The position numbers were made by a program, and so were the translations under genes. 62,377 nt of DNA from a virus (lineage: Duplodnaviria; Caudoviricetes). Under the pieces are notes generated by a model that was not told the origin of the DNA, made no database searches, and was given only the letters and a program-made list of their open reading frames with translations. The stretch is from the IMG/VR virus record IMGVR_UViG_3300032288_001948, positions 1-62,377 of that record, one strand, 5' to 3'. Below are positions 5,213 to 34,029 of the stretch, piece after piece (the stretch's first letter is position 1; each line of letters opens with the position of its first letter).

Positions 5213-6333
5213 ATCCGCACCACCTGACCGATCGGCACGTCAACCTTGGTCGTGCAGACAACAATCAGCGGATACTCAGGCTCGACGTTCGGCCACGGTG
5301 TATAGCCGTCGGTCACGAGCACAGCGATCTCCGGTTGATACTGGTCGATGTGTTGTAACGGCACACGCATATCAGTTCCTCCACCGCCTTTCGGATCAGC
5401 CTTGATGATGTCGCCGGCCTCGAACTCCTGTTCACCAGCGACCTCGGTGTCAGCCCAAACGAGGCGGATACGTTCGGGATTGACAGCCTCACTAATAGCC
5501 GCGACCTCACTGGCAATACGCGCCAACTCCTGATTAGTAATAGAGCCTGACGTATCGCCGATCACGACAATCTCACCCATACGCTGGCTGTGACGTGACG
5601 GCAGATAAACATCGGTGAAGCGACGGTTACGACGTGACCACGACTCGTTGTCTTTGGTGACACGGGTCATATACTCACGCAGCAAGTCTTGCCACGGCAC
5701 GGTCGGATTGAGTATCTCGTCAACCAGACGCGCCACACCCGCCGGCATCTTGCCGGCCATACGCGCCATGTTGGCAGCTTGAGCAACCTTCTGCTGTATC
5801 TGTTGCTCGGCCTTGGCACGCGCCTCGGCGTCGATGTTTGCAGGTTCACGCACATCTTCGCCCATGCCGGATGTATCTTGGTGCAGATCACCCGGCCCAG
5901 CTTTACCTTCGCCGTTCTGTTTGCGCTTCTTGTTCTCCTTATCCATCTCCTGCTTGAGCATGTCATACACTTGCTCGGCAGACATACCCTTGAATCGCGG
6001 ATCGAACAGACAGCCTTGGATCACCTCGAACCCTGCCTCATGCAGGATCAGATTGATGGCGTAGTCACACGCAATATTCCACAGTTGAGGATTGCGTGAG
6101 CCACGGCGCAAGCCATGCTTGAACACAATGTGCATGACCTCATGAGCCAGCACGAACATGACTTGCGGCAGCGTTAGACCCTCGATGAACGCAGGGTTAT
6201 AGAAGATCGTCAACATATCCGTCGCCGCTGTTGGCAGCGTGGTGTCGACGACCATCGGTGTGGACATGACGAGTGTTGCGAAGAACACTTGCGTCAATAA
6301 CATTTTAGCCTTGGCTTTCTGCATCTTGTTCAT
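5209..6333 (-). CDS. DUF2201-type protein: zincin metallopeptidase domain plus VWA-like domain
   Basis: TAATD, LAHEVMH (HEXXH), WNIACDYAIN; C-terminal DTSGS (MIDAS), GGGGTD, TDG. Confidence 0.85.
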   Translation of the reverse strand: MNKMQKAKAKMLLTQVFFATLVMSTPMVVDTTLPTAATDMLTIFYNPAFIEGLTLPQVMFVLAHEVMHIVFKHGLRRGSRNPQLWNIACDYAINLILHEAGFEVIQGCLFDPRFKGMSAEQVYDMLKQEMDKENKKRKQNGEGKAGPGDLHQDTSGMGEDVREPANIDAEARAKAEQQIQQKVAQAANMARMAGKMPAGVARLVDEILNPTVPWQDLLREYMTRVTKDNESWSRRNRRFTDVYLPSRHSQRMGEIVVIGDTSGSITNQELARIASEVAAISEAVNPERIRLVWADTEVAGEQEFEAGDIIKADPKGGGGTDMRVPLQHIDQYQPEIAVLVTDGYTPWPNVEPEYPLIVVCTTKVDVPIGQVVRI

Positions 6334-14027: not shown

Positions 14028-14308
14028 TGGCTAAGACTCGGCACGGCATGGTGAAGTCACCCGCGTGGCAGCGCTCAGAGGGCAAGAACCCCGAGGGCGG
14101 CCTGAACGCCAAAGGTCGCGCGTCGGCCAAGAAACAGGGCATGAACCTGAAACCGCCAGCGCCGAATCCCAAGACCAAGGAAGACGCCGGGCGGCGCAAG
14201 TCGTTCTGCGCCCGGATGTCCGGCATGAAAAGCAAGCTCACCAGCGCCAAGACGGCAAATGATCCGGATTCGCGGATCAACAAATCGCTACGAGCGTGGA
14301 ATTGTTGA
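14024..14308 (+). CDS. Conserved basic phage protein (RRKSFCARM type)
   Basis: GGLNAKGRAS...RRKSFCARM...PDSRINKSLRAWNC. Confidence 0.75.
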   Translation: MMAKTRHGMVKSPAWQRSEGKNPEGGLNAKGRASAKKQGMNLKPPAPNPKTKEDAGRRKSFCARMSGMKSKLTSAKTANDPDSRINKSLRAWNC

Positions 14309-14315
14309 GGTCCGA

Positions 14316-15740
14316 GTGAGTGACGCGATCAATTATACACCCCCGCCGACGATCAAAGAATTCATCAAAGATCATCGCGCGGGGGAGCTGTTTTACGACT
14401 GGATCGTAGGTCCGGTCGGCTCCGGCAAGACGACGGGCATTTTCTTCAAGCTCGTTCATATGGCGGCGCAGCAGAAACCGTCACCTGATGGCGTGCGCCG
14501 GACGCGCGCCGTGATTGTTCGTAACACTTTGCCGCAGCTTCGCGATACGACGCTGTCGTCATGGGCGTACTGGTTCAAGGATGGACAGGCTGGCCAGTGG
14601 TTGGCCACGCAGAACAAGTTCATCCTGAAGTTTAATGATGTGGAGTGTGAGGTCTTATTCCGCCCTCTGGACACGGCCGACGACGTCGCGCGCGTGCTCT
14701 CGTTGGAGGTGACCTTTGCAATCCTCGACGAATTTGTACAAATCCCGCGTGAGATTGTGGATGCGCTATCAGCGCGTCTTGGCCGCTATCCAGCAAGCAA
14801 AGATGGCGGCGCCACGAACTGGGGCATGTGGGGGTCATCGAACCCCGATACAGAAGACAATTGGTGGTTCGACTATCTGCACAATAGTCTACCCGAAAAC
14901 GCTCGGTATTTCGTGCAGCCATCTGGTTTTAGCGATTCTGCTGAGAACTTGATGAATCTGCCGGGCAATGCCGGGTATTATACGAACCAAGCCAAAGGCA
15001 AGTCTGAGGCGTGGATTAAGCAGTTTATTGAGGCGGAATGGGGGTATTCGGCTGCCGGCAAACCGGTCGTCCCGACATTTAAGGGCGACCTGCATATTGC
15101 CAAAAGCGCATTAAAGTATCATCCTACGCTCCCTCTTATTATTGGCTTGGACCCGGGGATAACAGGCTCAGCACTTATTTTTGGACAGGAGGACTTACAT
15201 GGTCGTCTTCTGGTTCTGGGTGAGCTTGTTCAGTCTGGGTATGGCATCGAACGCCTCATCCAAGAAAAAGTCCGCCCCTATATACGTTCCCGTTTTCCGG
15301 ACGCGCGCGTCACAATTGCGCCTGATCCGGCGGCTGCTAACCGAGCACAGACAGACGAACGGGCGGTGGTAGACGTCATCAAGCGGCACTATCCGGTGAA
15401 GATCGAGACAAACAACCGGCTGGCGATGCGCTTGAATGCGATCGAGCATTATACAACGCGGCTGACCGACATCGGCCCGGCGCTGCTCGTTGACGCCAAA
15501 GAGTGCCCGGTTCTGGTGCGCGCCCTCAAGGGCGGCTGGCGCTATGTCGTTGACACGAAGCGTGATACCATTAAAGGCGCAGAGCCCGAGAAGAACGCGT
15601 ACTCCCACCCCGGCGACGCGTTCGGGTATCTGTGCAGGTATTTCCATCGGCAGTCTGAGCGCGATGCGCGTTACTCAGTCGGTGGCCGCAAGCCGTTCAC
15701 TCCGCCGCGCCAGTTTGGCAGCGCGTATCATTTTAGGTGA
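14316..15740 (+). CDS. terL: Terminase large subunit
   Basis: Walker A GPVGSGKT, VRNTLPQLRDTT, Walker B AILDE, nuclease IGLDPG and HPGDAFGY. Confidence 0.92.
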   Translation: MSDAINYTPPPTIKEFIKDHRAGELFYDWIVGPVGSGKTTGIFFKLVHMAAQQKPSPDGVRRTRAVIVRNTLPQLRDTTLSSWAYWFKDGQAGQWLATQNKFILKFNDVECEVLFRPLDTADDVARVLSLEVTFAILDEFVQIPREIVDALSARLGRYPASKDGGATNWGMWGSSNPDTEDNWWFDYLHNSLPENARYFVQPSGFSDSAENLMNLPGNAGYYTNQAKGKSEAWIKQFIEAEWGYSAAGKPVVPTFKGDLHIAKSALKYHPTLPLIIGLDPGITGSALIFGQEDLHGRLLVLGELVQSGYGIERLIQEKVRPYIRSRFPDARVTIAPDPAAANRAQTDERAVVDVIKRHYPVKIETNNRLAMRLNAIEHYTTRLTDIGPALLVDAKECPVLVRALKGGWRYVVDTKRDTIKGAEPEKNAYSHPGDAFGYLCRYFHRQSERDARYSVGGRKPFTPPRQFGSAYHFR

Positions 15741-15745
15741 GACAC

Positions 15746-17917
15746 ATGATCACGACTGACATCAAAGGCCCGGCCTCGGCGGCAGCGGAACAAATGCCCC
15801 CGGACGTCATGGTGAATGACCCTGAAACGGCGCCGGTTCCGGTGATTCGGTCAGAGGAGCTGCGCCAGCTTGGCCAGAACCTCGACAAGCTGTTCATGCA
15901 GTACGTGTCAGATCGACGCATCGCGGAGCTGAAATGGCTGAGAAATCTACGTCAGTATCTCGGGCTGTACGACCCGGAGATCGAGAAGGAGATGTCGGTC
16001 AACCGATCGAAGGCATACCCGCGCATCACACGCGTCAAATGTATTTCGGTCCTGTCGCGGATCATGAATTTGATGTTCCCCGGCAACGAGCGCAACTGGC
16101 AGCTTCAAGCGTCTCCGTCACCGGATATGTCTCCGGAAGACGTGATGCAGGCGATCCAGACGCTGATGCAAAAGGCCCAAGAAGCCGGGCTGCCGCCGGC
16201 GCTGAGTGATGAGATGGTCAAGAGCGCTGTTCAGAATCTGGCGAATGACCGGGCTGAACTCCTGTCAGTTCTGATCGATGACCAGCTTCAGGAACTGGGC
16301 GGGGATCAGACGCTCGACTACGTTTCGCTTGCGCGCAAGGTCGCGCAGTCAGGTATTCTGTACGGCCTCGGCGTCCTCAAGGGTCCGTTTGTGCGTACGG
16401 CGCAGACAACGCGCTGGCAGTTTGACCCGGTGACGCAGATGCCGATGCCGGTGACGCAGACGATTTATAAGCCGATGTTTGAGTTCATGCCGATCTGGGA
16501 CTTCTACCCGGATATGTCGGCCAAGACGTTCGCGCAGATGGACGGCTATTTCAGCCGGGTTGTCATGTCGCGCTCGCAGATTCGCGCTCTGGCGGATCGC
16601 CCGGACTTCTTCCCCGACCAAGTGAAGCAGTACCTGAAAAATCACCCGCAGGGGAATTATCGCCCGCAGCCGTTCGAGACGGAGCTGCGCGCCATGGGCG
16701 TCAAGGTCAACGTCAATGAGATGAAATCGGAGACGACCAAGTACGAGATTCTGGTTTGGAATGGCCCGGTTGGCGGGCAGTTCCTACAGATGGCTGGCGT
16801 GGATGTGCCGGAAGATAAGCTGGCGGACGACATCGACGCCGAAGTCTGGATGATCGAAGGCAACATCATCAAAGCGGACATGAACCCTTGGCGAAAGATC
16901 GGGGCGGACGTAAAGACCATTCACACATTCCTGTTCGACGAGGACGACACAAGTCCGGTCGGGAATGGCCTGCCAAATGTTGTCCGGGACTCTCAGATGT
17001 CGATCAGTGCCGCCACGCGGATGCTGCTGGACAATGCAAGCGTCGTCTGCGGGCCGAATCTGGAGTTAAACACAGACCTCCTGCGCCCCGACCAAGACTT
17101 GACGTCGACTTCAGCTTACAAAATTTGGTACCGGGAGGGCACTGGCCCGGATGCGATGCAGCCGGCGGTGAGGAATCTTGCGATTGACGCGCATCTCGAC
17201 GATCTGCTGAAGACGATCGAGCTGTTCATGAAGTTCGCAGATATGGAAACTTTCGTCGGTCCGGCGACCGGCGGCGATATGGAACGGGGCATGAGTGAGC
17301 CGATGCGTACGGCGGCTGGCGCCTCCATGTTGCGCGGTGACGCGGCTTTGCCGTTCAAAGATATCATCCGTAACTTTGATATTTTCACGCAGTCGCTGAT
17401 CAACTCGCTGGTGCAGTTCAACCGCAAGTTCAATCCTGATCTGGCGCCGGAAGGTGACTATAACGTGCTTGCACGTGGCGCCACCTCGCTGATCGCGAAG
17501 GAAGTTCGCGGGATGCAGGTCGACCAGTTGGCGGCGACGCTGACCCCGGCCGAGGCGATGCACATTGACGAGCGCAAATTGATCGAGGCGCGCGTCAAGG
17601 TTCGCGACCTTGGTGATCTGTTGGTGCCGGCGGATGAAGCGAAACGTCGTCAGCAGCAGGCGTCTCAGGCGCAAGAGATCATGCAGCAGCAGCAGGCTGA
17701 GCAGGTCGCGGCCAACGTCCGTAAGACACTTTCTGACGCGTATAAAAATATTGCTCAAGGCCAGAAGAACACAGCCAATGCTGAAGCTGCGACCATTCAG
17801 GCCGCGCTAGACATTCTGGAGAAGGGCGTCGAGCAGGAGGTCAGCGGTGAAGGTGGATCGGAGAACAGCCCAAGCGGAGCTGGTGAAAGCAATTCAGGAG
17901 CGGGCCGGAACGTATGA
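15746..17917 (+). CDS. Portal protein
   Basis: ~720 aa directly after TerL; podovirus portal-like features (WDFYPD, RTAAGASML, Q-rich tail). Confidence 0.85.
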   Translation: MITTDIKGPASAAAEQMPPDVMVNDPETAPVPVIRSEELRQLGQNLDKLFMQYVSDRRIAELKWLRNLRQYLGLYDPEIEKEMSVNRSKAYPRITRVKCISVLSRIMNLMFPGNERNWQLQASPSPDMSPEDVMQAIQTLMQKAQEAGLPPALSDEMVKSAVQNLANDRAELLSVLIDDQLQELGGDQTLDYVSLARKVAQSGILYGLGVLKGPFVRTAQTTRWQFDPVTQMPMPVTQTIYKPMFEFMPIWDFYPDMSAKTFAQMDGYFSRVVMSRSQIRALADRPDFFPDQVKQYLKNHPQGNYRPQPFETELRAMGVKVNVNEMKSETTKYEILVWNGPVGGQFLQMAGVDVPEDKLADDIDAEVWMIEGNIIKADMNPWRKIGADVKTIHTFLFDEDDTSPVGNGLPNVVRDSQMSISAATRMLLDNASVVCGPNLELNTDLLRPDQDLTSTSAYKIWYREGTGPDAMQPAVRNLAIDAHLDDLLKTIELFMKFADMETFVGPATGGDMERGMSEPMRTAAGASMLRGDAALPFKDIIRNFDIFTQSLINSLVQFNRKFNPDLAPEGDYNVLARGATSLIAKEVRGMQVDQLAATLTPAEAMHIDERKLIEARVKVRDLGDLLVPADEAKRRQQQASQAQEIMQQQQAEQVAANVRKTLSDAYKNIAQGQKNTANAEAATIQAALDILEKGVEQEVSGEGGSENSPSGAGESNSGAGRNV

Positions 17918-19002: not shown

Positions 19003-20052
19003 ATGAGTGCTGTCACATCTTATGGTGATATTTCACCTGCGGTTGCCGCCTATTCCGTGGTCCGTATGCTCAAGCGCGCGATGCCTTACCTGCATCTCGA
19101 AAAGTTTGGTCAGACCTACCCGCTGCCGACGAACTCCACGCAGACCGCGAAGTTCCGTCGTTACTTCCTGTCGGGCGCCGGCGGTTCCGCTGGTACGCAG
19201 TCCGCTGGTTCGGCGTTCTACATCCCGCTGGCGACGACTCCCCTGATCGAGGGCGTCACCCCGGCTGGCTCGCGCCTCGCAAATCAGGACTACACGGTTA
19301 CGCTGAATCAGTATGGCGACTTCGTCACCATCACGGACGTCGTGATCGACACGCACACCGACCCGGTTCTCCAGCAGGCCACGGACATCCTTGGCGAGCA
19401 GGCTGCCGTTACGGTTGAGACGCTGCGCTTCAACGTCCTGAAGGCGGGCACGAACGTGTTCTACGCCAACAGCGTTGCGGGTCGCACGACGGTCGCCGCC
19501 GCGATCTCGCTGGCTGATCAGCGTCGCGTCACGACTGGCCTGAACCGCCAGAACGCCAAGAAGATTTCGCAGGTTGTCGCCAGCTCTGCTGACTTCAACA
19601 CGAAATCGGTCGAAGCGTCCTACATGGCTGTTTGCCATCCGGACCTCGAAACCGACATCCGTTCGATGACGGGCTTCAAGGCGGTTGCGGATTACGGCCC
19701 GCACACGACCCCGTTCGAAGGCGAAATCGGCTCGGTCGAGCAGGTTCGCTATCTGACCTCGACGGTCATCAGCCCGTGGGCTGACGCCGCCACGGGTTCG
19801 ACCAAGGGCTCGATGCGCTCCACCAGCGGCACCTACGCCGACGTTTATCCGGTCCTCTACTTCGGCCGCGATGCGTTCGGTATCGTCCCGCTCAAGGGCA
19901 AGTCGTCCATGACCCCCATGGTCGTCAATCCGAAGCCGGCTCCGGGCGATCCGCTCGCTCAGCGCGGCACGGTCGGCTGGAAGCTGTGGACTGCCACGGT
20001 CATCCTTCAGGAAGCCTTCATGGCTCGCCTTGAGGTCGCTGCGACGGCCTAA
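19003..20052 (+). CDS. Major capsid protein (N4-gp56 family)
   Basis: YGDISP, KFRRY, LIEGVTP, QYGDF, GEIGSV, DPLAQRGTVGWK; strong codon bias. Confidence 0.92.
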   Translation: MSAVTSYGDISPAVAAYSVVRMLKRAMPYLHLEKFGQTYPLPTNSTQTAKFRRYFLSGAGGSAGTQSAGSAFYIPLATTPLIEGVTPAGSRLANQDYTVTLNQYGDFVTITDVVIDTHTDPVLQQATDILGEQAAVTVETLRFNVLKAGTNVFYANSVAGRTTVAAAISLADQRRVTTGLNRQNAKKISQVVASSADFNTKSVEASYMAVCHPDLETDIRSMTGFKAVADYGPHTTPFEGEIGSVEQVRYLTSTVISPWADAATGSTKGSMRSTSGTYADVYPVLYFGRDAFGIVPLKGKSSMTPMVVNPKPAPGDPLAQRGTVGWKLWTATVILQEAFMARLEVAATA

Positions 20053-24806: not shown

Positions 24807-27800
24807 ATGCCGTTCGTTGACGAGAATCCATATTTCGCCGGCGCTGCACCGCAGCAGGATGCGACGCCTTCGCGGGAAATTGATTTCTCGCAATATCCCA
24901 GATTTGCCGAGCAGTTCGCAGCGAAAGAAGCCCCGGCGCGAGGTGTATTCGGTCCCGGTTTGCGTGCAGGATTCAATGAGCTTCAAGCTATGGGCGGCGC
25001 CGCGGCGTCGGCTCTTGGCGGTGCTGTAGGTTATCAGCCCCTTCAAGAATGGGGTGCTGATGTCAGCCGCGCAAATCAGGCGGAGGCCGCCAAGTACGGA
25101 CGTCCTGATCTTGAGACAGCTCCATGGCGTGAGGGCGGCGCCGGTTGGCTTCCATGGCTTGGGTATCAGGCCGCGAAGCAAATCCCGTTGGCCGGGGCCA
25201 CAATGCTCGGCACAGCGTTGTTTCCTGAAGCCGCTGTTCCTGCTGCTTTATCGCGCGCCGGCGCCGCTGTGCCTGAACTTCTTGGTGGTGGCGGTTTGCG
25301 GGCCGGTATGTCGGCGGCAGAGACTGCTGCGGCGGAGACTGCGGGTAAACAGTACGCCAAAAGTTTCTTGGGCGGTTCCGCGGTCAACCTGCCGGTGGCT
25401 GCTGGCAGTATGTATCAGGAAGCGATGGATCGCCCCGGCGGCCCGACGCAAGAAGACGCGATTAAAGCGTTGGCGATGGCGCCCGCGTATGCCGCGACAG
25501 AAGGTCTGGGCGGCGCGCTTGGCCGCGGGATTATTTCTGAGGCGGCGACCAAAGGCATTACCGCGACTGTGGGGCGTGCAGCTCTGCGTAGTGCGGTCGA
25601 GGAAGGCCCGACCGAGGCAGCCCAGACGGCGATGGAATTGTCGTTCCGTCCCGATATGTCGCCGGCGCAGAAAGCTAGTCAGATCGTCGATGCTGCATTG
25701 ACTGGCGCCGCGGTCGGCGGTGTTTTTGGTGCGGCTGGCGGTGGCGTCAACGCCGCCATGAACCCCATGCGCGCTACGAAAGATGTGGCGCCGAACCAGC
25801 TTACAAACGACGACATCCTCAACTCAGTGGACCAGACACTCGGTCCGCTGCCGAATGCGCCGGCCCAACAGGCAGATACCGAGCAGGTGACGGCTCCCGC
25901 CACACCATCTGAGCCTGCTCCGCCGCCAATGATGGCGCAGATTACCGAGGCTGAAGCTCCGGAAGCCGTGGCGAAGGAAGAATCGGCCGCAGCCGCCGAA
26001 CGCGTCGAGAAATTACAGACTTCGGTCGCTGACGCGATGGACGGCGGTGCGATCGCTCAGAATGTGAAAGTGGTCCAGCGGGTGCTGGGTGATGCACAGT
26101 CCCTGCCGGATGCGATCAGTAAATTTCTTGATATTCAGGATCAGGCCGACCAGAAGAAAGGCGCAGCCGCTGGTAGATTGACCGCTGCGCAAAAGAAGAT
26201 TGGTAGCGCGCTTGGCATTACGGACTCAGATGGTCGTCCGCTGGATATCGACGCTGAGATCAGCACTCTGACGCAGCAATTGACGGCTGCGCAGACGCCG
26301 CAGGCTCGTCAGCAGATTACGAATCAGATTGACCGGCTCGATCTGATTCGACCGGTTATCGAGGAAGTACGGGCCAGCCGCGCCGCGCCTGTCGAGTCCG
26401 TCGCGCCGGCGCCTGAAGAAATGCTCACTCCGCCTCCGCGCGAGGCCGCTCCGGCAACTGAGGAAGCTCCGGGTGCACGAGCACCAGCGGCTGCGCCCGC
26501 GGTGACATTAACTGCTGAAGCGGAAGACCTGCTGGCAAAGGGTGGTATTCCGTTCAAGGTCACGCAGAACCTCGCCAAGATTGCCAAAGAGAACGGCATC
26601 GAGGTCAAGGGCGCGAGCGGCGCCGAAGCTCAGCGAATCGTTGCAGAACTTCAAGCGATCAAGGACAGCCAGACGGCTGCACCAGCCACGGAGATTCCCA
26701 GTGCCATTCAAGAGCAAGGCCCAACGGGCGTATATGTTCAGCCAGCTCCCGAAACTGGCGGAGCAGTGGGCGAAGGAAACGCCCAAGGGGGCGAAGCTCC
26801 CGGAGAAGGTATCGGGGCGGCCTCAGAAACCCAACCAGAAGTCCCCACCACCCCCCCGTCAGAAGTAGCACCGCCCGCGGCGCCTGCGCCCTCACCGGCT
26901 GCTCAGACGTTTATGCAGCAGCAGGGCATCAAGCAGCTTTCGCCGGAAGAACGCGTCGCTGCACGCGAGCGGCAGAAAGTCGAGGAGGCGGCGTTTCTTC
27001 AGAAACGTCAGGCCCAGATTCGCGCGGCCAATGCCAAGAATGCTCAACGCGGCGGCGTGACGGCAGCACCCGTGGCGCCAAAGGGCATGACGCCCGAAGA
27101 ATTTCTTGCACGACGCAATCGCGAGCGTCCGTCGATGGGGGCTCTAGGCGAAGAATCTGAGTTAGACCGCGACATTTCGTCGCTGGTTGAGAATAACGCC
27201 AGCGGCAAACAAGTGCTGGATTACCTTGGGCAGCACGGAAAGACTGAGTTCGATCGGCTTCTTGCTCAGCATTTGTCTCGACTCGGCGTATCGCCGTCGA
27301 TGCAGTTCGAGGATGTCAACAACCCTGATCTTCAGCTTGATCGTGAGCAGGCCGCCGGACGTGAAATCCTCGGCTCGTACAACGTGGAGCAGGACCGCAT
27401 AAACTTATACAGTCGTGCGGGTTCGGCGCAGGTCACGCTGCATGAGGGAATACATGCTGCAACCGACCGTGCGATCCGCACCAGTTCGCCGGCAGCGCAA
27501 AAACTGAAAGATGTCTACTCAGAATTTATGGCGCGGCCGGAGCAGTATGATCGGTCGACCCCGGCGTATGACAATGAAGCCGAGTTCATCAGTGAAGCGT
27601 TCAGTAACCCGGATTTCCGTGAGTTTCTGAAGACGTTGCAGGTCGGCCCCAAGAATCTATGGGAAAAATTTAAGGACGCGGTGTTCAAATTGCTGCGGAT
27701 GCCGCAGCGTGCGCGCACGGTCTTTGATCAGGTGATGGAAGTGGGTGAGCCACTATTCCAAGAGAACCAGCAGACGACCATGGAGGACGTTTATCGCGCC

Positions 27801-30800
27801 ATGGGCGAGGAGCCTATTAACGAGTCACCATTCTCTGTAAACGAGCAGCTCGGTAAGATCGCGACGACGCTCGGTAAAGTGGCCGATAAGTTCGATCGCA
27901 CTGCGTCGCTCGGCGTTGCCGCTCGTCAGACTATACTGGGGTGGAACTCTATCACTCACATGGCGACACGTTACGGTAAACTGTTCACCTCTGGCGGTAC
28001 GAACTGGATACAGAAATACGCGGACTATAATCAGGAGCGTGCGGCGGTCGCGGCGCGTATGTCTCAGCTGTTTAAGAATGTGTACGACGATTACAAAGCG
28101 CTCGAAAAAAAGAGCGCGGCGGTCGCCGAAACATTTCGCAAACTCATGGCGTTGACCGAGTTCAATATCGACTGGCGTAAGTCGTGGGATGCGCAAACGT
28201 GGCTGCACGATCAGCCTAACAGCAAAGATTTACAAAGGCTGCACGCCGATATGCGGCGTGAAGGCGGCCGGTTGGACGCCGATACGAAAGGGTTGTTCGA
28301 TCGGTTCGAGGCGGTAAACAACGTCACGCGATATGCGCAGATGTCGTTATCACTTTACAACATGATCGTGGCTGACCCGGCTATGGCGAAGAATATCGCC
28401 AACTCTGATGTCGACCCGATTGACGAGTTTTTGCAACAGTCGTCACTCCACGAGAATCCTGCCGAAGCTCAAACTTATTGGCGGAAGACGCTTGAGAAGC
28501 AGCTGGCTGCGGCCGACCCGTTCATTAAGGCCCAGAATCGGATCATGAGGAAGGGTGCAACTGCGGCTGAACGCTCGAAAGCGCGGCAGATTCTTCAGCC
28601 TCTGTCGCAATTGGTTGACTCGACCAAGCAGACGATGACGGTGATGAAACAGTCGCCAAACTTCCATCTCGGGCGGTTTGGCGATTACATGGTTACATTC
28701 CAGATTAAGAAAGACGAGGCGGGCATCGACGCTGACGCTCAACGCCGCGTGGCTGCCGCCATGGATGCCGCAGGTGTACAAGCTCAGCTTTCACCGGAGA
28801 ACAACAATCCGACCGTGTTTGTGCGTGTCGAGACGATTGAGCAGGCTAAGAAGCTACAGGAGCTTGCTCGCGACATGCAGAAGCGCGGATGGCTTAATCC
28901 GGATGTAGAGCCTAAAGCGGGACTGCGCACGGATTCAGAGTTCAGGGATATCGCCAACCCGCAATGGCTCCAGAAATATATCGAGGCGCTTCAGTCTGAG
29001 ACGTTTGAGGACGAGGGACTCACGGGCGAGGCGGCGGAGCAGGCGATTAAAAACCGCAAGCAGATGGTTCAGCAGGCCCGCGAGCTATATCTGAATATGT
29101 TGCCAGATAACGCGTTGGCGAAGGTGTTGACTGAGCGTAAAAGCATCGCCGGCTACTCACCGGACATGATGCGCAGTTTCGCATTCCGTCATCAGATCGG
29201 CATGAACACGATCGCGAATCTAGCCACGATGCACAATATCGCAGGCTCGCTGACCGAGATGCGCCGCATCATCAACGCTGCCAAGACGGGCGACGTGCAG
29301 GATACGGTGAAGCTCCAGAATATCTTCAATGAGATTTCGCAGCGTGAAACCGGTCGATCGATGCAACCTCAGAATAGCTTCTGGGACAGCGTTCGCGCGT
29401 TCAATCACGCGTACTTCTTAGGCGCATCACCGTCGTACGTACTGGTCAATATGACCCAGCCCGGCGTCTTGTTGTGGCCCGAATTATCTAAGCAGCATGG
29501 CTATGTAAACTCGGGTAAGGCGATTGCCTCGGTTACGCCGACCGCGTTTAAGGTCATGGCGGCGGTCATGAAGGTTAGCAAGTCGGCCGACGCGATCATT
29601 ACTGAAAAATCGTTGAAGGCATCCGGCGTGGACGAGGCGACCGCTGATTTTATCATGCGCGTGGCAAACACCGGTAATCTTGATCTTGGCAGTACATCAC
29701 GTGAGTTAGGGCGCGTTGTCGATAAAGAGATGGATTCGCGCACCGATCAGCTCCTGCGTTGGGCGGCGGCGGCTGGGTATTATTCTGAGACGTTTACTCG
29801 TCTGTCGGCGGCGCTTGCCGCGCGAGAATTGTATCAAAACAAGTCCGACACCGAAGGCATGATGACTTATGTGAATAAGACCATCAACGAGTCCATGCTG
29901 AACTATTCGTCATGGAATACGGCCCGTCAGATGGGCAAGATGGGTGTGGCGGGCGAGTACACCCCGGTCATGTTCAGCTTCATGACGTATCAGGCGCAGG
30001 TGCTTGAGAAAATGTATCGTGAGCTGCGGGATGCGTTTGGTGGTTCGCCAGAGGCGCGGAGATTCTTGCTTTCGCACGCCGCTGCACTGACGGTCCTGTC
30101 GGGATCGCTCGGGCTGCCATTCGCTTCGGTCGCGGCGCGAGTATTCGATGGGCTCAAGGATGCATTCGGGGACGACGATGAGCCGTCAGATGTCAAATCG
30201 GCATGGCGGAATTTTCTCGCGGATATGTTTGGCAAAGAGGTCGGAGAAGTTCTGGCGCGCGGTGTACCGCGGGCGCTCGGGTTTGACGTCTCAAGCCGTG
30301 TGGGTGAAGCCGATCTGGCGCCGTTTAGCCGCTTCCTGACCGATCGCCGGGAATGGCGGGATGCCGCTCAAGACATGGCGCTCCGGACACTCGGGTCACC
30401 GGTGAGCATGGCGCTCAATATTCTTGAGGGAGGCACGCAGTTTGCGCGCGGGGATGCGATTGAAGGGCTCCAGAAGATGGTGCCAAACAGTCTCAAGGGA
30501 CCGATCGCCGCGTATCGCATGGCCGAGGATGGCCGGTATGTCGACAGTAAAGGTCGCGAGTTGCCGATGGAGCCGGGCGCACAAGATGTCTTGATCCAAG
30601 CGCTCGGATTTACACCACAGGCGAAAGCCGAGTACCAAGAAGCCAGCATGGCGCAGACAGTCCGCAAAGGGCTTCTGACGCGCGAAGGTGCGACGCTTCG
30701 CGATCAGTTGGTGGACGCCATCATGGATAATTCGGCCGACCGCGATCGACTTACACAGAAGGCGGTGGCTTATGATCAGGCCCATCCGGACCGCCCAATC

Positions 30801-30941
30801 CTGAAGTCGGTTGCGTCTACGATTAAACGACGGCGAGAAGGTCTGGCGTTATCGCGCGCGACTGGGGCGCCGCTTGGAGTCAAACCGCAAGATGTCGGCG
30901 CGCGTGGACTGACAACATATATGAATGTCGACATGCAGTGA
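24807..30941 (+). CDS. Giant internal virion / polyvalent protein (2044 aa) with zincin HEXXH and PLxRFG-like motif
   Basis: TLHEGIHAAT..EFISEAFSNPDF (MPTase-like); NFHLGRFGDY; C-terminal GSLGLPF. Confidence 0.8.
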   Translation: MPFVDENPYFAGAAPQQDATPSREIDFSQYPRFAEQFAAKEAPARGVFGPGLRAGFNELQAMGGAAASALGGAVGYQPLQEWGADVSRANQAEAAKYGRPDLETAPWREGGAGWLPWLGYQAAKQIPLAGATMLGTALFPEAAVPAALSRAGAAVPELLGGGGLRAGMSAAETAAAETAGKQYAKSFLGGSAVNLPVAAGSMYQEAMDRPGGPTQEDAIKALAMAPAYAATEGLGGALGRGIISEAATKGITATVGRAALRSAVEEGPTEAAQTAMELSFRPDMSPAQKASQIVDAALTGAAVGGVFGAAGGGVNAAMNPMRATKDVAPNQLTNDDILNSVDQTLGPLPNAPAQQADTEQVTAPATPSEPAPPPMMAQITEAEAPEAVAKEESAAAAERVEKLQTSVADAMDGGAIAQNVKVVQRVLGDAQSLPDAISKFLDIQDQADQKKGAAAGRLTAAQKKIGSALGITDSDGRPLDIDAEISTLTQQLTAAQTPQARQQITNQIDRLDLIRPVIEEVRASRAAPVESVAPAPEEMLTPPPREAAPATEEAPGARAPAAAPAVTLTAEAEDLLAKGGIPFKVTQNLAKIAKENGIEVKGASGAEAQRIVAELQAIKDSQTAAPATEIPSAIQEQGPTGVYVQPAPETGGAVGEGNAQGGEAPGEGIGAASETQPEVPTTPPSEVAPPAAPAPSPAAQTFMQQQGIKQLSPEERVAARERQKVEEAAFLQKRQAQIRAANAKNAQRGGVTAAPVAPKGMTPEEFLARRNRERPSMGALGEESELDRDISSLVENNASGKQVLDYLGQHGKTEFDRLLAQHLSRLGVSPSMQFEDVNNPDLQLDREQAAGREILGSYNVEQDRINLYSRAGSAQVTLHEGIHAATDRAIRTSSPAAQKLKDVYSEFMARPEQYDRSTPAYDNEAEFISEAFSNPDFREFLKTLQVGPKNLWEKFKDAVFKLLRMPQRARTVFDQVMEVGEPLFQENQQTTMEDVYRAMGEEPINESPFSVNEQLGKIATTLGKVADKFDRTASLGVAARQTILGWNSITHMATRYGKLFTSGGTNWIQKYADYNQERAAVAARMSQLFKNVYDDYKALEKKSAAVAETFRKLMALTEFNIDWRKSWDAQTWLHDQPNSKDLQRLHADMRREGGRLDADTKGLFDRFEAVNNVTRYAQMSLSLYNMIVADPAMAKNIANSDVDPIDEFLQQSSLHENPAEAQTYWRKTLEKQLAAADPFIKAQNRIMRKGATAAERSKARQILQPLSQLVDSTKQTMTVMKQSPNFHLGRFGDYMVTFQIKKDEAGIDADAQRRVAAAMDAAGVQAQLSPENNNPTVFVRVETIEQAKKLQELARDMQKRGWLNPDVEPKAGLRTDSEFRDIANPQWLQKYIEALQSETFEDEGLTGEAAEQAIKNRKQMVQQARELYLNMLPDNALAKVLTERKSIAGYSPDMMRSFAFRHQIGMNTIANLATMHNIAGSLTEMRRIINAAKTGDVQDTVKLQNIFNEISQRETGRSMQPQNSFWDSVRAFNHAYFLGASPSYVLVNMTQPGVLLWPELSKQHGYVNSGKAIASVTPTAFKVMAAVMKVSKSADAIITEKSLKASGVDEATADFIMRVANTGNLDLGSTSRELGRVVDKEMDSRTDQLLRWAAAAGYYSETFTRLSAALAARELYQNKSDTEGMMTYVNKTINESMLNYSSWNTARQMGKMGVAGEYTPVMFSFMTYQAQVLEKMYRELRDAFGGSPEARRFLLSHAAALTVLSGSLGLPFASVAARVFDGLKDAFGDDDEPSDVKSAWRNFLADMFGKEVGEVLARGVPRALGFDVSSRVGEADLAPFSRFLTDRREWRDAAQDMALRTLGSPVSMALNILEGGTQFARGDAIEGLQKMVPNSLKGPIAAYRMAEDGRYVDSKGRELPMEPGAQDVLIQALGFTPQAKAEYQEASMAQTVRKGLLTREGATLRDQLVDAIMDNSADRDRLTQKAVAYDQAHPDRPILKSVASTIKRRREGLALSRATGAPLGVKPQDVGARGLTTYMNVDMQ
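26701..26868 (+). CDS. Nested out-of-frame small gene (MPFKSKAQ type), 55 aa
   Basis: GGAG at 26690 then GTG at 26701; product MPFKSKAQRAYMFSQLPKLAEQWAKETPKGAKLPEKV resembles a small phage protein family I recall. Confidence 0.6.
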   Translation: MPFKSKAQRAYMFSQLPKLAEQWAKETPKGAKLPEKVSGRPQKPNQKSPPPPRQK

Positions 30942-31427: not shown

Positions 31428-31627
31428 TGCCGACTCCCGCGACTTATACCCTCTCGGCGCTGCCGGGGGGGTTTGCCTTATCCGGCGCCGCTGCATCGCT
31501 TGAGAATGGCTGGGGTGGCGACGGAGTTTTTGTATGGGTGACGCCCGAGATCGAGGCGAACGTGTTTCCAGTTGCGGCGACAGATGCTAATGTATCTGCA
31601 CCGAATTCGATCTTCCGCTGGGAGTGA
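31427..31627 (+). CDS. Small protein with one FxLxG repeat unit
   Basis: TAATG coupling; YTLSALPGGFALSG. Confidence 0.5.
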   Translation: MPTPATYTLSALPGGFALSGAAASLENGWGGDGVFVWVTPEIEANVFPVAATDANVSAPNSIFRWE

Positions 31628-31635
31628 TCACCGAC

Positions 31636-34029
31636 ATGGCTTTCAAAATCCTCAATCGCGTCAAGATGACGGTCGCCAGTGCTCCCGGCACCGGCTCGAT
31701 CACTCTTGGTTCTGCGCTCCAGCAATACCAATCCATGTCGGATGCCGGCGTCTCAGACGGCGATACGGTACCCTACGTCATCGAGGATTTGTCCCTCCCC
31801 GGCTGGGAAATCGGCACCGGCACATACACGGCATCCGGCACAATCCTCGCACGCACGACCGTCCTGATGTCGAGCGCCGGCGGCACGATTAAGATTTCCG
31901 CGACTGCTAATGCGATCGTGATGGTTTCGCCTTCGCAGGCCAATTTGCAATCGACTGACACGCTGACGAGCGGCACGCTACCCGTGGGTCGTGGCGGCAC
32001 CGGCCTCACCTCGCTTACCGCTGGCTACATTCCGTTTGGCGGATCGTCAACGTATAGCTCAGACAGCAGCTTGTTCTGGGACAATACGAATAAGCGGCTT
32101 GGCGTCGGCACTGCGTCACCAATCTCTAAGTTTACCGTTATTTCAGGTAGCGGCTCTACGCTCGCGCAGTTGAACATTGGTTACAATGGTTCTAGCAACT
32201 ACTATGATGCAGACAACCATTTCTTTAGAAACGCTGCACAAACAGGACAGGTTACTATTGACAGCGCTCAACGTATCACAGCCGGTGCGTTAAGTGTATC
32301 TACAGGTTCGTCACCAAACATAGCTGCCTTATACACAGGTTATGGTGGCTCAACTAACTACTACGACGCCAATACGCACATTTGGCGCAATGGTTCATCA
32401 AGTGAAACCATGCGTATCTCAGGTAGCTCTGTGTTCATCGGTGGCACAACTGCGCCTGTTCTTGGAACGGAAGCCCTTGGTGTCTATGGACCGCTTGGCA
32501 TCAAAGCCGCATCACTGACAGCATCTTCGATATATGCAAATATTGCAGGCGCTCCAAACTTTCAAACGTATTACGCAGGAACCAGTGCCACATACATTGG
32601 CTCTATTGGCACTGATGGCACCAATCTAAACATTTCTGGCAATGCCGGTCTAAACTTGCAGGTTGCCACCAATACCAAGATGACTATCACCTCCGGCGGG
32701 CTGGTGGGCATTGGCACTTCGTCGCCATCATCGGGCACAAAGTTAGAGGTTTACGGGAACAGCGCAGGCATCGCACAGATTGCATCTACCACTGCGGGTG
32801 TTTCTCAACTATGGGCGCTATCAAGTGATTGGTCGTCTGGGCCATCCTATATGGGATCAGGCTTATGGCAATATGGATCAACCGCTACGGGGACTAACTC
32901 TGGCCTATCAAACGCAAGTTTAGGCTTATTAGCATTTCAAAATTGTTCTGCTGGCTTAATTCAGACAAACGGCGCTTCGCCTATTGTGTTTGGGACAATA
33001 GGCGCAGAGCGTATGCGTATCACCTCCGCAGGTGCGGTAGGTATTGGCACTTCGTCGCCATCCACTACGCTTACTGTAGCTGGCGCAACGACTATCACAT
33101 CTGGTGGACTGTCGGTTGCTGGTTCAGCATCGGGTTACTCTGATGAGTTGCGCTTTACATCAACAACATCCGGCGTAGAGGTTGCAATATCGTCGCTTGC
33201 AGCAGGCGCTGCTTCGATGAACTTCGATCATCGCGCCACAAGCAATACTGCTGGGTTTAAGTGGCGTAACGGCACGGGCTCTGCTGTTCAGCTTATGCAG
33301 CTTGATGGTTCCGGCAACCTCGGACTGGGTGTCACGCCGAGTGCTTGGGGTGCCGGTTGGCGCGCTTTTGAATTTGGTGGAGCAGGCGGGAACGCCTTGA
33401 TGTCTGGTGGTTCCGCTTCGTGGCTAACGTCTAACTGTTACTACAACGGAACAAACTGGATATATAAAGCCAGCTACAATGCTAGCTACTATTTGCAAAA
33501 CGGCGGCGTTCACTCTTGGCTAACATCCGCCTCCGGCACCGCAGGCAATGCCATCAGCTTCACGCAGGCGATGACGCTGACTGCAGCGGGCTATCTTGGG
33601 ATAGGCCTTACAAATCCCGGCGCAGATATTCATCTTTATAGATCAGGCGCAAATCCTGTTCTAAGAATTGAGCGCGCATCTGGTGCGTATTTTGACATAT
33701 TTGCAACTGCATCAGCCGGCTTCCTGTCTGTTGTAACAAACAGTGATTTAGTATTTAGAACAAATAACACAGACGCGCTCCTTATCAGCGCTGCTGGATG
33801 GGCAAATGTATGCGCTGCAACTGCCACTCCTGCTGGAGGTTCGACAACCGCCAAACTTATATTTGGAACGACAGCAGGCTTTGGTATCTACTACGGTTCA
33901 GGTGCGCCGACAGTGTCTGCTGCTCAAGGCTCCATCTATCTCCGCAGTGATGGCTCGTCAACATCAACGCGCTTGTATGTGAATACAAACGGCAGCACGA
34001 CATGGACTAACGTAACGACTGCGGCATAA
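31636..34029 (+). CDS. Tail fibre protein
   Basis: NRVK..GTGSITLG..WEIGTGTY anchor; LPVGRGGTG; repeated GxVGIGTxSP units. Confidence 0.85.
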   Translation: MAFKILNRVKMTVASAPGTGSITLGSALQQYQSMSDAGVSDGDTVPYVIEDLSLPGWEIGTGTYTASGTILARTTVLMSSAGGTIKISATANAIVMVSPSQANLQSTDTLTSGTLPVGRGGTGLTSLTAGYIPFGGSSTYSSDSSLFWDNTNKRLGVGTASPISKFTVISGSGSTLAQLNIGYNGSSNYYDADNHFFRNAAQTGQVTIDSAQRITAGALSVSTGSSPNIAALYTGYGGSTNYYDANTHIWRNGSSSETMRISGSSVFIGGTTAPVLGTEALGVYGPLGIKAASLTASSIYANIAGAPNFQTYYAGTSATYIGSIGTDGTNLNISGNAGLNLQVATNTKMTITSGGLVGIGTSSPSSGTKLEVYGNSAGIAQIASTTAGVSQLWALSSDWSSGPSYMGSGLWQYGSTATGTNSGLSNASLGLLAFQNCSAGLIQTNGASPIVFGTIGAERMRITSAGAVGIGTSSPSTTLTVAGATTITSGGLSVAGSASGYSDELRFTSTTSGVEVAISSLAAGAASMNFDHRATSNTAGFKWRNGTGSAVQLMQLDGSGNLGLGVTPSAWGAGWRAFEFGGAGGNALMSGGSASWLTSNCYYNGTNWIYKASYNASYYLQNGGVHSWLTSASGTAGNAISFTQAMTLTAAGYLGIGLTNPGADIHLYRSGANPVLRIERASGAYFDIFATASAGFLSVVTNSDLVFRTNNTDALLISAAGWANVCAATATPAGGSTTAKLIFGTTAGFGIYYGSGAPTVSAAQGSIYLRSDGSSTSTRLYVNTNGSTTWTNVTTAA

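Follow-up and report, generated by a model that had tools for sequence, protein, structure and literature searches.

The DNA analysed here (the window) is the complete 62,377-bp virus record IMGVR_UViG_3300032288_001948 (Caudoviricetes), which carries direct terminal repeats. Its structural module contains the gene of a giant protein of 2044 aa, and inside this gene, in another frame, lies a far smaller open reading frame (ORF) of 55 codons (Table 1). The small ORF starts with GTG (26701-26703), ends with TAG (26866-26868) and is preceded by a GGAG motif followed by the 7-nt spacer ATTCCCA (26694-26700). Relative to the giant ORF it is read in the +1 frame (26701 - 24807 = 1894 = 3 x 631 + 1), and its translation is the 55-residue peptide VPFKSKAQRAYMFSQLPKLAEQWAKETPKGAKLPEKVSGRPQKPNQKSPPPPRQK, which has 13 lysine and arginine residues, 3 aspartate and glutamate residues and no cysteine. 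An initial annotation, made from the letters alone, had described a GGAG, a 7-nt spacer, a GTG and a 55-aa ORF in the +1 frame at this place. All of these are present exactly in the window sequence, the peptide is the one quoted, and the reading of the giant frame given there (SAIQEQGPTGVYVQPAPETGGAVGEGNAQ...) was reproduced on translation.

Table 1. Features of the nested locus and its surroundings (positions in the window; SD, Shine-Dalgarno; L083 and L084 are loci with homologues of the window's giant protein).
Feature	Position	Strand	Remarks
SD core GGAG (predicted)	26690-26693	+	7 nt before nested start
Predicted nested gene, MPFKS small-protein/module family	26701-26868	+	GTG, 55 codons, TAG; homology, all invariant columns kept
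Giant protein gene, 2044 aa, structural module	24807-30941	+	ORF; PHROG matches; gene position
Low-complexity linker in the giant frame, giant aa 632-688	26700-26870	+	composition; in variable middle
Conserved N-terminal region, giant aa 14-299	24846-25703	+	39-40% identity to L083 and L084 giants
HExxH motif HEGIH, giant aa 879-883	27441-27455	+	190 residues after nest; motif only
Conserved C-terminal region, giant aa 966-2025	27702-30881	+	36% identity to L083 over 1118 aa
Terminase large subunit	14259-15740		structural module
Portal-type protein	15737-17917		structural module
Major head protein gene	19003-20052		upstream of giant gene
Tail-fibre-like gene	31624-34029		downstream of giant gene

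Length alone does not set the small ORF apart. The +1 frame of the giant gene, which has a GC content of 55%, contains 11 open stretches of at least 55 codons. The small frame itself is open within the window for 63 codons 5' of the GTG, back to 26512, and the list of ORFs also holds an extended version of it, a 108-aa GTG ORF from 26542. An open frame as such is not beyond chance here; the homology of the encoded peptide is. A search of 5.8 billion proteins recovered 48 small homologues of 40-78 aa (best E 1.1e-9), the alignment of which (A1) has the consensus MPFKSKAQRxxLYAxxPxxAKxFxxETPKGAKLPExVK followed by a basic tail. All invariant columns of the family (P2, F3, K4, S5, P17, A20, T27 and P28) are kept in the window peptide, and the near-invariant Q8, K29, G30, L33 and P34 are likewise present. 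A family profile built without the window peptide matched its residues 2-46 with 75 bits (E 3e-23), and an exhaustive profile search of 1.84 billion cluster representatives returned 4174 clusters at E ≤ 1e-3 and 810 at E ≤ 1e-10. This bears out the resemblance, noted in the initial annotation, to a widespread family of small phage proteins starting MPFKSxAQ. The peptide is also matched by phrog_1375, a family of unknown function (E 6e-5 and 5.8e-6), and no PHROG match was obtained for six other alternative-frame ORFs of the giant gene (78-215 aa); Pfam held no family at E ≤ 1 for either the 55-aa peptide or the 108-aa extended ORF. A chance ORF with a chance resemblance to the family, which the 11 open stretches might suggest, is already refuted by the E-value of the peptide search, by the score of the self-excluded profile and by the six controls, and retains practically no weight.

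The architecture of the family members indicates how the module is normally presented. Of the best 150 representatives of the exhaustive search, 130 have the module from residue 1 onwards, and the GTG of the window sits at exactly this family residue; GTG starts were also seen in four of the related loci (L009, L015, L051 and L065). Of 440 longer proteins found to carry the module, the domain scan covered 120 among the matches listed, and 109 of its 130 domain hits were N-terminal. The other 21 comprised 10 full-length modules, all starting with M or V, and 11 short partial matches. Downstream of the module, the fusion partners included a GH24 lysozyme, an InPase domain (detected in P0125 by Pfam PF18823), a SET domain, an M48-like peptidase and DUF5661. 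In-frame internal modules that retain the methionine occur in P0094 (aa 838-880 of 1226) and P0159 (aa 672-714 of 1085). Because the module normally heads its protein, these architectures suggest that it needs a free N-terminus, and a copy in the middle of a giant gene would then be expressed from its own start and not as an internal domain.

An AlphaFold2 (AF2) model of the peptide, computed with the family alignment, showed helices at residues 6-15 and 17-26, flanked by a PFKS segment that is extended on the N-terminal side and by a basic tail without structure (mean predicted local distance difference test score, pLDDT, 77). Foldseek of this model against the PDB gave 0 matches, the model being too small for this to be informative. 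Following the idea of a ribbon-helix-helix-like dimer, a homodimer of two copies of residues 1-42 was predicted; with a score of 0.02 the prediction gave no answer and is not used as evidence. DUF3008 (PF11450) was considered as the parent family and rejected. It was the nearest Pfam-bearing cluster by language-model features (score 0.86), a lead only, and the subsequent test with its hidden Markov model (HMM) failed, with no match in the window at E ≤ 10 and none of the 49 aligned members matching at the cut-off of 24 bits. DUF3008 consists of small viral and bacterial proteins of similar size, which may share a similar pattern of N- and C-terminal motifs. Within the MPFKS family, a subfamily from AT-rich phages combines the module with a C-terminal domain of about 150 aa that has a conserved WDHPGCED motif; its members are L018, L028, L034 and L039 (192-198 aa), L077 (217 aa) and L066 (248 aa).

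The nested arrangement is not confined to the window. A scan of IMG/VR returned 312 relatives, and the locus counts given here cover the best 80 of the 312. In 12 of these 80 loci (L002, L006, L015, L033, L035, L053, L058, L060, L061, L072, L073 and L079) the small ORF lies inside a giant ORF, for which at least 1200 codons were demanded; the enclosing ORFs span 1226 to more than 2958 codons. In all 12 the giant frame is the small frame +2, i.e. the small gene occupies the +1 frame of the giant gene. Three loci were set aside as doubtful, namely L074 and L078 (701-codon open frame, GC-rich DNA) as well as L043 (cut by the contig end). The same layout is found in the cultured Flavobacterium phage elemoC_14-1A (L001; MT497067.1; GC 0.32), where an ATG-initiated copy of 42 codons occupies the +1 frame of a 3694-aa 'structural protein'. 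Together with this phage and the window, the 12 loci extend from a GC content of 0.32 to 0.66. In tblastn searches of cultured phages, which are insensitive with such short queries, 68 Flavobacterium phage records were matched at E of about 0.2, one of which was inspected; another search with short family members matched 4 records. The prediction that annotation pipelines would miss the nested gene agrees with the inspected GenBank record, which lists the giant coding sequence only, and no peptide 100% identical to that of the window occurs among the 48 hits.

These loci bear on a further explanation, in which the 2044-codon ORF would not be a single gene but would encode separate N- and C-terminal proteins on either side of a free-standing small gene; the continuity of the host frame would then merely reflect GC-rich DNA. 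At 55% GC the window does commonly contain long open frames of the alternative kind, and in L029 (6001-12114) an ORF of 1338 codons stands by itself before a giant ORF of more than 2100 aa, whose product begins with the module in frame. Against this stand the complete lack of host-frame stops across the nest and the same continuity at GC 0.32-0.41 (L001, L035, L053, L058, L061 and L072), where it is not incidental. Among loci with a GC content below 0.45, a host-type frame is open across the small ORF only under a larger enclosing ORF (the giants and L043, with at least 289 codons), and dual openness in these loci is not due to chance. Moreover, the uninterrupted giant protein of L027 is collinear with that of L053 on both sides of the L053 nest. 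A split gene is on this evidence highly improbable.

The comparison of L027 and L053 also shows how the module varies among related giants. L027 lacks a block of about 56 aa containing the nest of L053, in an alignment of the linkers that does not fix the exact boundaries of the indel, and has its small gene just after the stop codon of the giant gene. Five loci in all (L027, L051, L063, L068 and L069) carry the small gene 2-11 nt after the stop of an ORF of at least 1400 codons. Among related giants, the small gene thus behaves as a cassette that is present or absent, nested or abutting. Nested copies were not found among the 11 loci from metagenome-assembled genomes, and neither an additional nor a decayed copy of the module emerged from the 81 loci and the window, all of which gave only noise in this search.

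Two observations concern the nests themselves. In L001, where the nested ORF occupies 6001-6129, one copy of a 31-nt direct repeat (97% identical; 5591-5621 and 5987-6017, 396 nt apart) straddles the start of this ORF, with 14 nt ahead of the ATG and 17 nt from the ATG onwards, and the upstream copy encodes a 10-codon stub, MPFKSKKLMK; this looks like the footprint of an in-frame insertion or duplication of 132 codons at the 5' edge of the nest. The host-frame peptides over the nests (window, L001-L079) share a pseudo-motif, D-A-[VI]-Q-E-[PS]-S ... V-x-V-[RQ]-E ... V-G-E-G-[DN], in linkers that are otherwise unalignable, because these linkers shadow the conserved small gene.

To see which frame is conserved in the overlap, we compared the nested copies at the nucleotide level, with counts that refer to pairs of related sequences and are not phylogenetically independent. 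For 14 nested copies (37 aligned codons) the pairwise differences at small-frame positions 1, 2 and 3 were 0.341, 0.240 and 0.472, compared with 0.313, 0.256 and 0.614 for 27 free-standing copies. The least variable position in the nests is small-frame position 2, which is the wobble position of the giant frame. Position 3 is the most variable, yet it varies less than in the free copies, as dual coding predicts. Among single-base differences in the first 30 codons (78 pairs), changes that keep the small-frame amino acid but replace the giant-frame one outnumbered the converse class by 858 to 513; the two classes were observed at 0.313:0.187 as against 0.173:0.262 expected for random mutation. 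Over the same 90 nt, mean amino-acid identity in 91 pairs was 0.57 for the small-frame reading, compared with 0.40 for the giant-frame reading. L058 and L073 share 70.5% identity across 3.8 kb of the giant gene; in this pair the best 90-nt window (99%) is the nest, and identity falls to 60-70% in the linker immediately upstream. To judge by these substitution patterns, it is the small frame and not the giant frame that carries the coding signature in the overlap. The reduction of variation that had been anticipated from dual coding was thus seen, and it tracks the small frame.

Variation within the window's own lineage was followed in contigs of about 5% divergence (runs X2, X4 and X5). Among the 83 variant places found, 40 are listed; 39 of these fall at 25835-26636 and none at 26637-26840. 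The next listed variant, 26841 G>A, changes AAG to AAA in the small frame (Lys47, silent) and GTC to ATC in the giant frame (Val>Ile). This is suggestive of invariance at 26637-26840 and not proof of it. In run X2, the match of a 265-nt contig of depth 2 to the window is confined to 26690-26774; it begins at the first base of the GGAG and includes 7 differences, and the preceding 174 nt of the contig are unlike the window. This one low-depth contig suggests that the cassette can stand in a different upstream context, with the boundary at the ribosome-binding site. Over 25800-27800, contigs from an aquatic metagenome (X2) and a drinking-water metagenome (X4) differ from the window at roughly 4-9% of positions, and both runs carry, in place of 27224-27556 in the variable middle of the giant gene, a diverged segment of the same length (333 nt).

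It could be argued that the ORF is a silent relic or passenger, i.e. a module once in frame or a recent insert that was displaced by indels, is untranslated and has been conserved for lack of time. In-frame internal modules do exist (P0094 and P0159), and the module is missing from the giants of L083 and L084, which are homologous to that of the window. Nested copies, however, share only about 57% amino-acid identity and still keep the start, the stop, the invariant residues and the coding pattern of the small frame. The arrangement also extends over GC contents of 0.32-0.66 and over giants that are only about 25-35% identical to each other, and decayed copies numbered 0 in the 81 loci and the window. 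We therefore regard a relic as unlikely.

The signals around the start codon were informative as to how the small frame may be entered. A start codon stands at module position 1 in 14 of 14 nested copies, either ATG or, in the window and L015, GTG. All seven nested loci with a GC content of at least 0.41 (window, L002, L006, L015, L033, L072 and L079) have an SD core (AGGA, GGAG or GAGG at -17 to -4), compared with a background of 5-16% per site in the same giant genes. The six nested loci at GC ≤ 0.39 show A-rich leaders in place of an SD core. Bacteroidota-type hosts initiate translation without SD sequences, which may account for these leaders. In most nested loci the small frame has a stop 1-20 codons 5' of the start (1 codon in L006, 2 in L033); the window, with its 63 open codons, is the exception.

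As a different route to the small-frame peptide, ribosomal frameshifting would act either as a +1 shift from the giant to the small frame, joining the N-terminal part to the module, or as a -1 shift where the small ORF ends, joining the module to the C-terminal part and mimicking the in-frame fusions. The 63 open codons before the GTG of the window are compatible with the former. In-frame versions exist at the head of the L029 giant and inside P0094 and P0159, and passing from the small to the giant frame would take a -1 shift, which is the usual direction of frameshifting. On the other side, each of the 14 nested copies has its start codon at module position 1, a stop codon of its own closes every nested small ORF, the SD cores are conserved, and the upstream small-frame stops of the other loci argue against a frameshift fusion. 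Slippery heptamers of the form X XXY YYZ in the small frame are lacking in the window and were found in 3 of 14 nested and 9 of 27 free copies, i.e. without enrichment, and a -1 frameshift was rejected on these counts. Frameshifting in either direction is accordingly an improbable source of the peptide.

With both frames open, the peptide homologous to a large family, the arrangement recurrent, the small frame under selection and the initiation signals conserved, we consider it roughly 80% probable that 26701-26868 truly encodes a protein, as a gene that is nested in the giant gene's +1 frame and translated by internal initiation. Ribosomes would initiate independently at GTG 26701 on the mRNA of the giant gene, guided by the GGAG 7 nt upstream, and the product would be a 55-residue basic protein with an N-terminal PFKS segment, a two-helix hairpin and a tail rich in Lys, Arg and Pro. 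Ribosomes making the giant protein would read the same bases one position earlier and produce a disordered linker rich in Gly, Glu, Pro and Ala. The small gene would be the older, constrained partner and the giant linker over it largely a by-product, whose lack of structure makes it tolerable. Probably the cassette was either inserted into a permissive linker or engulfed by one, and it appears able to relocate to just past the stop codon of the giant gene. We infer this direction of evolution, with the small gene probably the older one, as well as the number of nesting events. The term 'overprinted' used by the initial annotation holds in part: the out-of-frame overlap is real, but the small gene should not be taken as born de novo in the giant gene, since it is the widespread and conserved partner, and it is the linker that looks secondary.

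Several points weigh against nested, internally initiated coding or narrow what follows from it. Among the sequencing runs listed for the region there was no RNA run, which is not taken as evidence, and translation of the nested gene is a prediction from sequence. The SD core is found in none of the six nested loci at GC ≤ 0.39, for which initiation without SD in the hosts is a putative explanation, and at the window locus the open codons upstream leave room for a +1 shift from the giant frame. The selection counts come from non-independent pairs, and in the window's lineage the unlisted X2 differences in 25800-26872 are bounded at 6, which at worst could all lie in the nest. The homologous giants of L083 and L084 (36% and 28% identity to that of the window) have no module; L083 is a 61,068-bp, 97%-complete genome without an MPFKS module anywhere, and L084 an 18%-complete fragment. 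From these two giants it follows that the gene is accessory and dispensable for this type of giant protein. Distant homologous giants do keep the +1 ORF and its ribosome-binding site, which the initial annotation had proposed to check, but the nest is not universal. Furthermore, the remaining loci hold free-standing copies in varied contexts, which weakens the case for a fixed functional tie to the giant protein.

The giant protein itself was matched by phrog_11358, phrog_22591 and phrog_30335, families of giant proteins of unknown function, over aa 1417-2011 (E 1e-33 to 4e-37). A virion role, as assumed by the initial annotation, is suggested by the position of the gene among the structural genes and by the 'structural protein' annotation of the Flavobacterium phage counterpart; the location of the nest, out of frame within this structural-module gene, is as had been described. 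The giant protein of L015 is 33-37% identical to that of the window over about aa 34-480, the L084 giant is 28% identical to it in the C-terminal region (aa 966-2025), and the nest-bearing giants of L079 and L006 share 30% identity with it over approximately 1320 aa, from about aa 784. The nest falls in the variable middle (aa 300-965), which the L083 and L084 giants do not share with the window's. In the linker at aa 632-688, glycine accounts for 19% of the residues and alanine, glutamate and proline for 14% apiece, and 14% of the residues are hydrophobic; G, P, E, Q, S, T and A together make up 84% of it, compared with 53% of the whole giant protein. Of 17 nested or candidate ORFs, 7 contain an HExxH motif on the C-terminal side of the nest (window, L001, L002, L006, L053, L061 and L079). 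For aa 688-998 there was neither a Pfam match nor a PDB sequence match, the whole giant protein had no Pfam match, and megablast of its gene against cultured phages found none either. 'Zincin-like' is therefore a putative label for the giant protein, given on the HExxH motif alone. A 215-codon GTG ORF (25054-25701, plus strand), likewise in the +1 frame of the giant gene, lies in its Ala/Pro/Glu-rich N-terminal part and is without a PHROG match; it is most likely a chance open frame in GC-rich DNA.

To our knowledge, out-of-frame nested genes in tailed phages are known from few cases. In the Rz/Rz1 spanin genes (lambda; 18.5/18.7 of T7), a larger phage gene wholly contains a small one, which is read in its +1 frame from an internal start of its own; the Rz1 product, a lipoprotein, acts in lysis together with that of the host gene. 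The gene in the window resembles this pair in being wholly embedded in the +1 frame with a predicted start of its own. It differs in that its peptide has no cysteine, and hence no lipobox, and does not belong to the Rz1 type, and in its host, a 2044-aa protein of the structural module; moreover, members of the nested family are mostly free-standing or head other proteins. Insertions of the ShiLan type are similar in another respect. There too, a pre-existing gene with its own GTG start and stop lies out of frame in a host gene, the host frame runs stop-free across the nest as a tolerated loop, and uninterrupted host homologues exist (here L083 and L084, and L027 as opposed to L053). The ShiLan nest, however, is a homing (HNH) endonuclease, which accounts for its mobility, whereas the 55-aa two-helix protein has no nuclease features; as a test for a homing endonuclease, the window peptide gave no Pfam match at E ≤ 1 and modelled as a two-helix hairpin. 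In contrast to ShiLan, the arrangement described here recurs in 12 of 80 loci, the window and Flavobacterium phages, always in the same relative frame. Nested +1 genes are thus already known in phages, and what is new is the unannotated, recurrent nest of a gene from a large family in giant genes. In the literature outside subscription journals and supplements we found nothing on this nested arrangement, and a search for the string 'MPFKS' gave nothing relevant, the one phage paper with these letters having them at the C-terminus of an unrelated predicted protein.

As for the host gene, polyvalent proteins have been described as giant packaged proteins of phages and conjugative elements with HExxH domains (Iyer et al., 2017; PMC5512222). 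The window's giant protein resembles them in its size, in being encoded beside portal, terminase and capsid genes, in its variable middle and in its HExxH motif, and InPase is among the fusion partners of the module. It differs in that no Pfam model of polyvalent proteins matches it. The words 'frameshift' and 'overlapping' do not occur in the text of PMC5512222, and nested genes are not described there.

The module is linked to giant genes in four forms, i.e. nested, abutting the stop codon, fused at the head and in frame inside, which points to a possible functional tie between the two. From this linkage to giant structural proteins and from the fusion partners, and nothing else, we tentatively guess that the product could be a small basic partner or adaptor of packaged and injected proteins that works with a free N-terminus, a suggestion that is rather doubtful as it stands. 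In a broader and equally speculative scenario, which may well turn out to be wrong, the MPFKS gene would be a self-contained cassette (ribosome-binding site, start, about 45-60 codons, stop) that repeatedly lodges in, or is engulfed by, the disordered linkers of giant proteins. The host linker would then be made by reading in the -1 frame, a reverse overprinting with the old gene inside and the new frame outside, and the nest would persist as the small protein needs a free N-terminus and co-production with the giant protein as a partner in packaging or ejection. If this were true, the conserved giant-protein 'motif' DA[VI]QE...VGEG... would be the mere shadow of another gene.

Standard gene callers forbid out-of-frame nested genes. 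Far from being an orphan, the gene hidden at this locus has a family of more than 4000 clusters behind it, with same-frame nests in giant genes at GC contents of 32-66%, and would add a conserved protein to phage genomes that are annotated without it, cultured Flavobacterium phages included. It also calls for caution, since conservation seen across giant proteins can be due to a gene in a different frame, which domain hunters could misread. The locus may finally serve as a clear natural example of an overlap in which the embedded gene is probably the older one and the host linker is derived, and it bears on the origin of overlapping genes as well as on the growth of giant multi-domain virion proteins.

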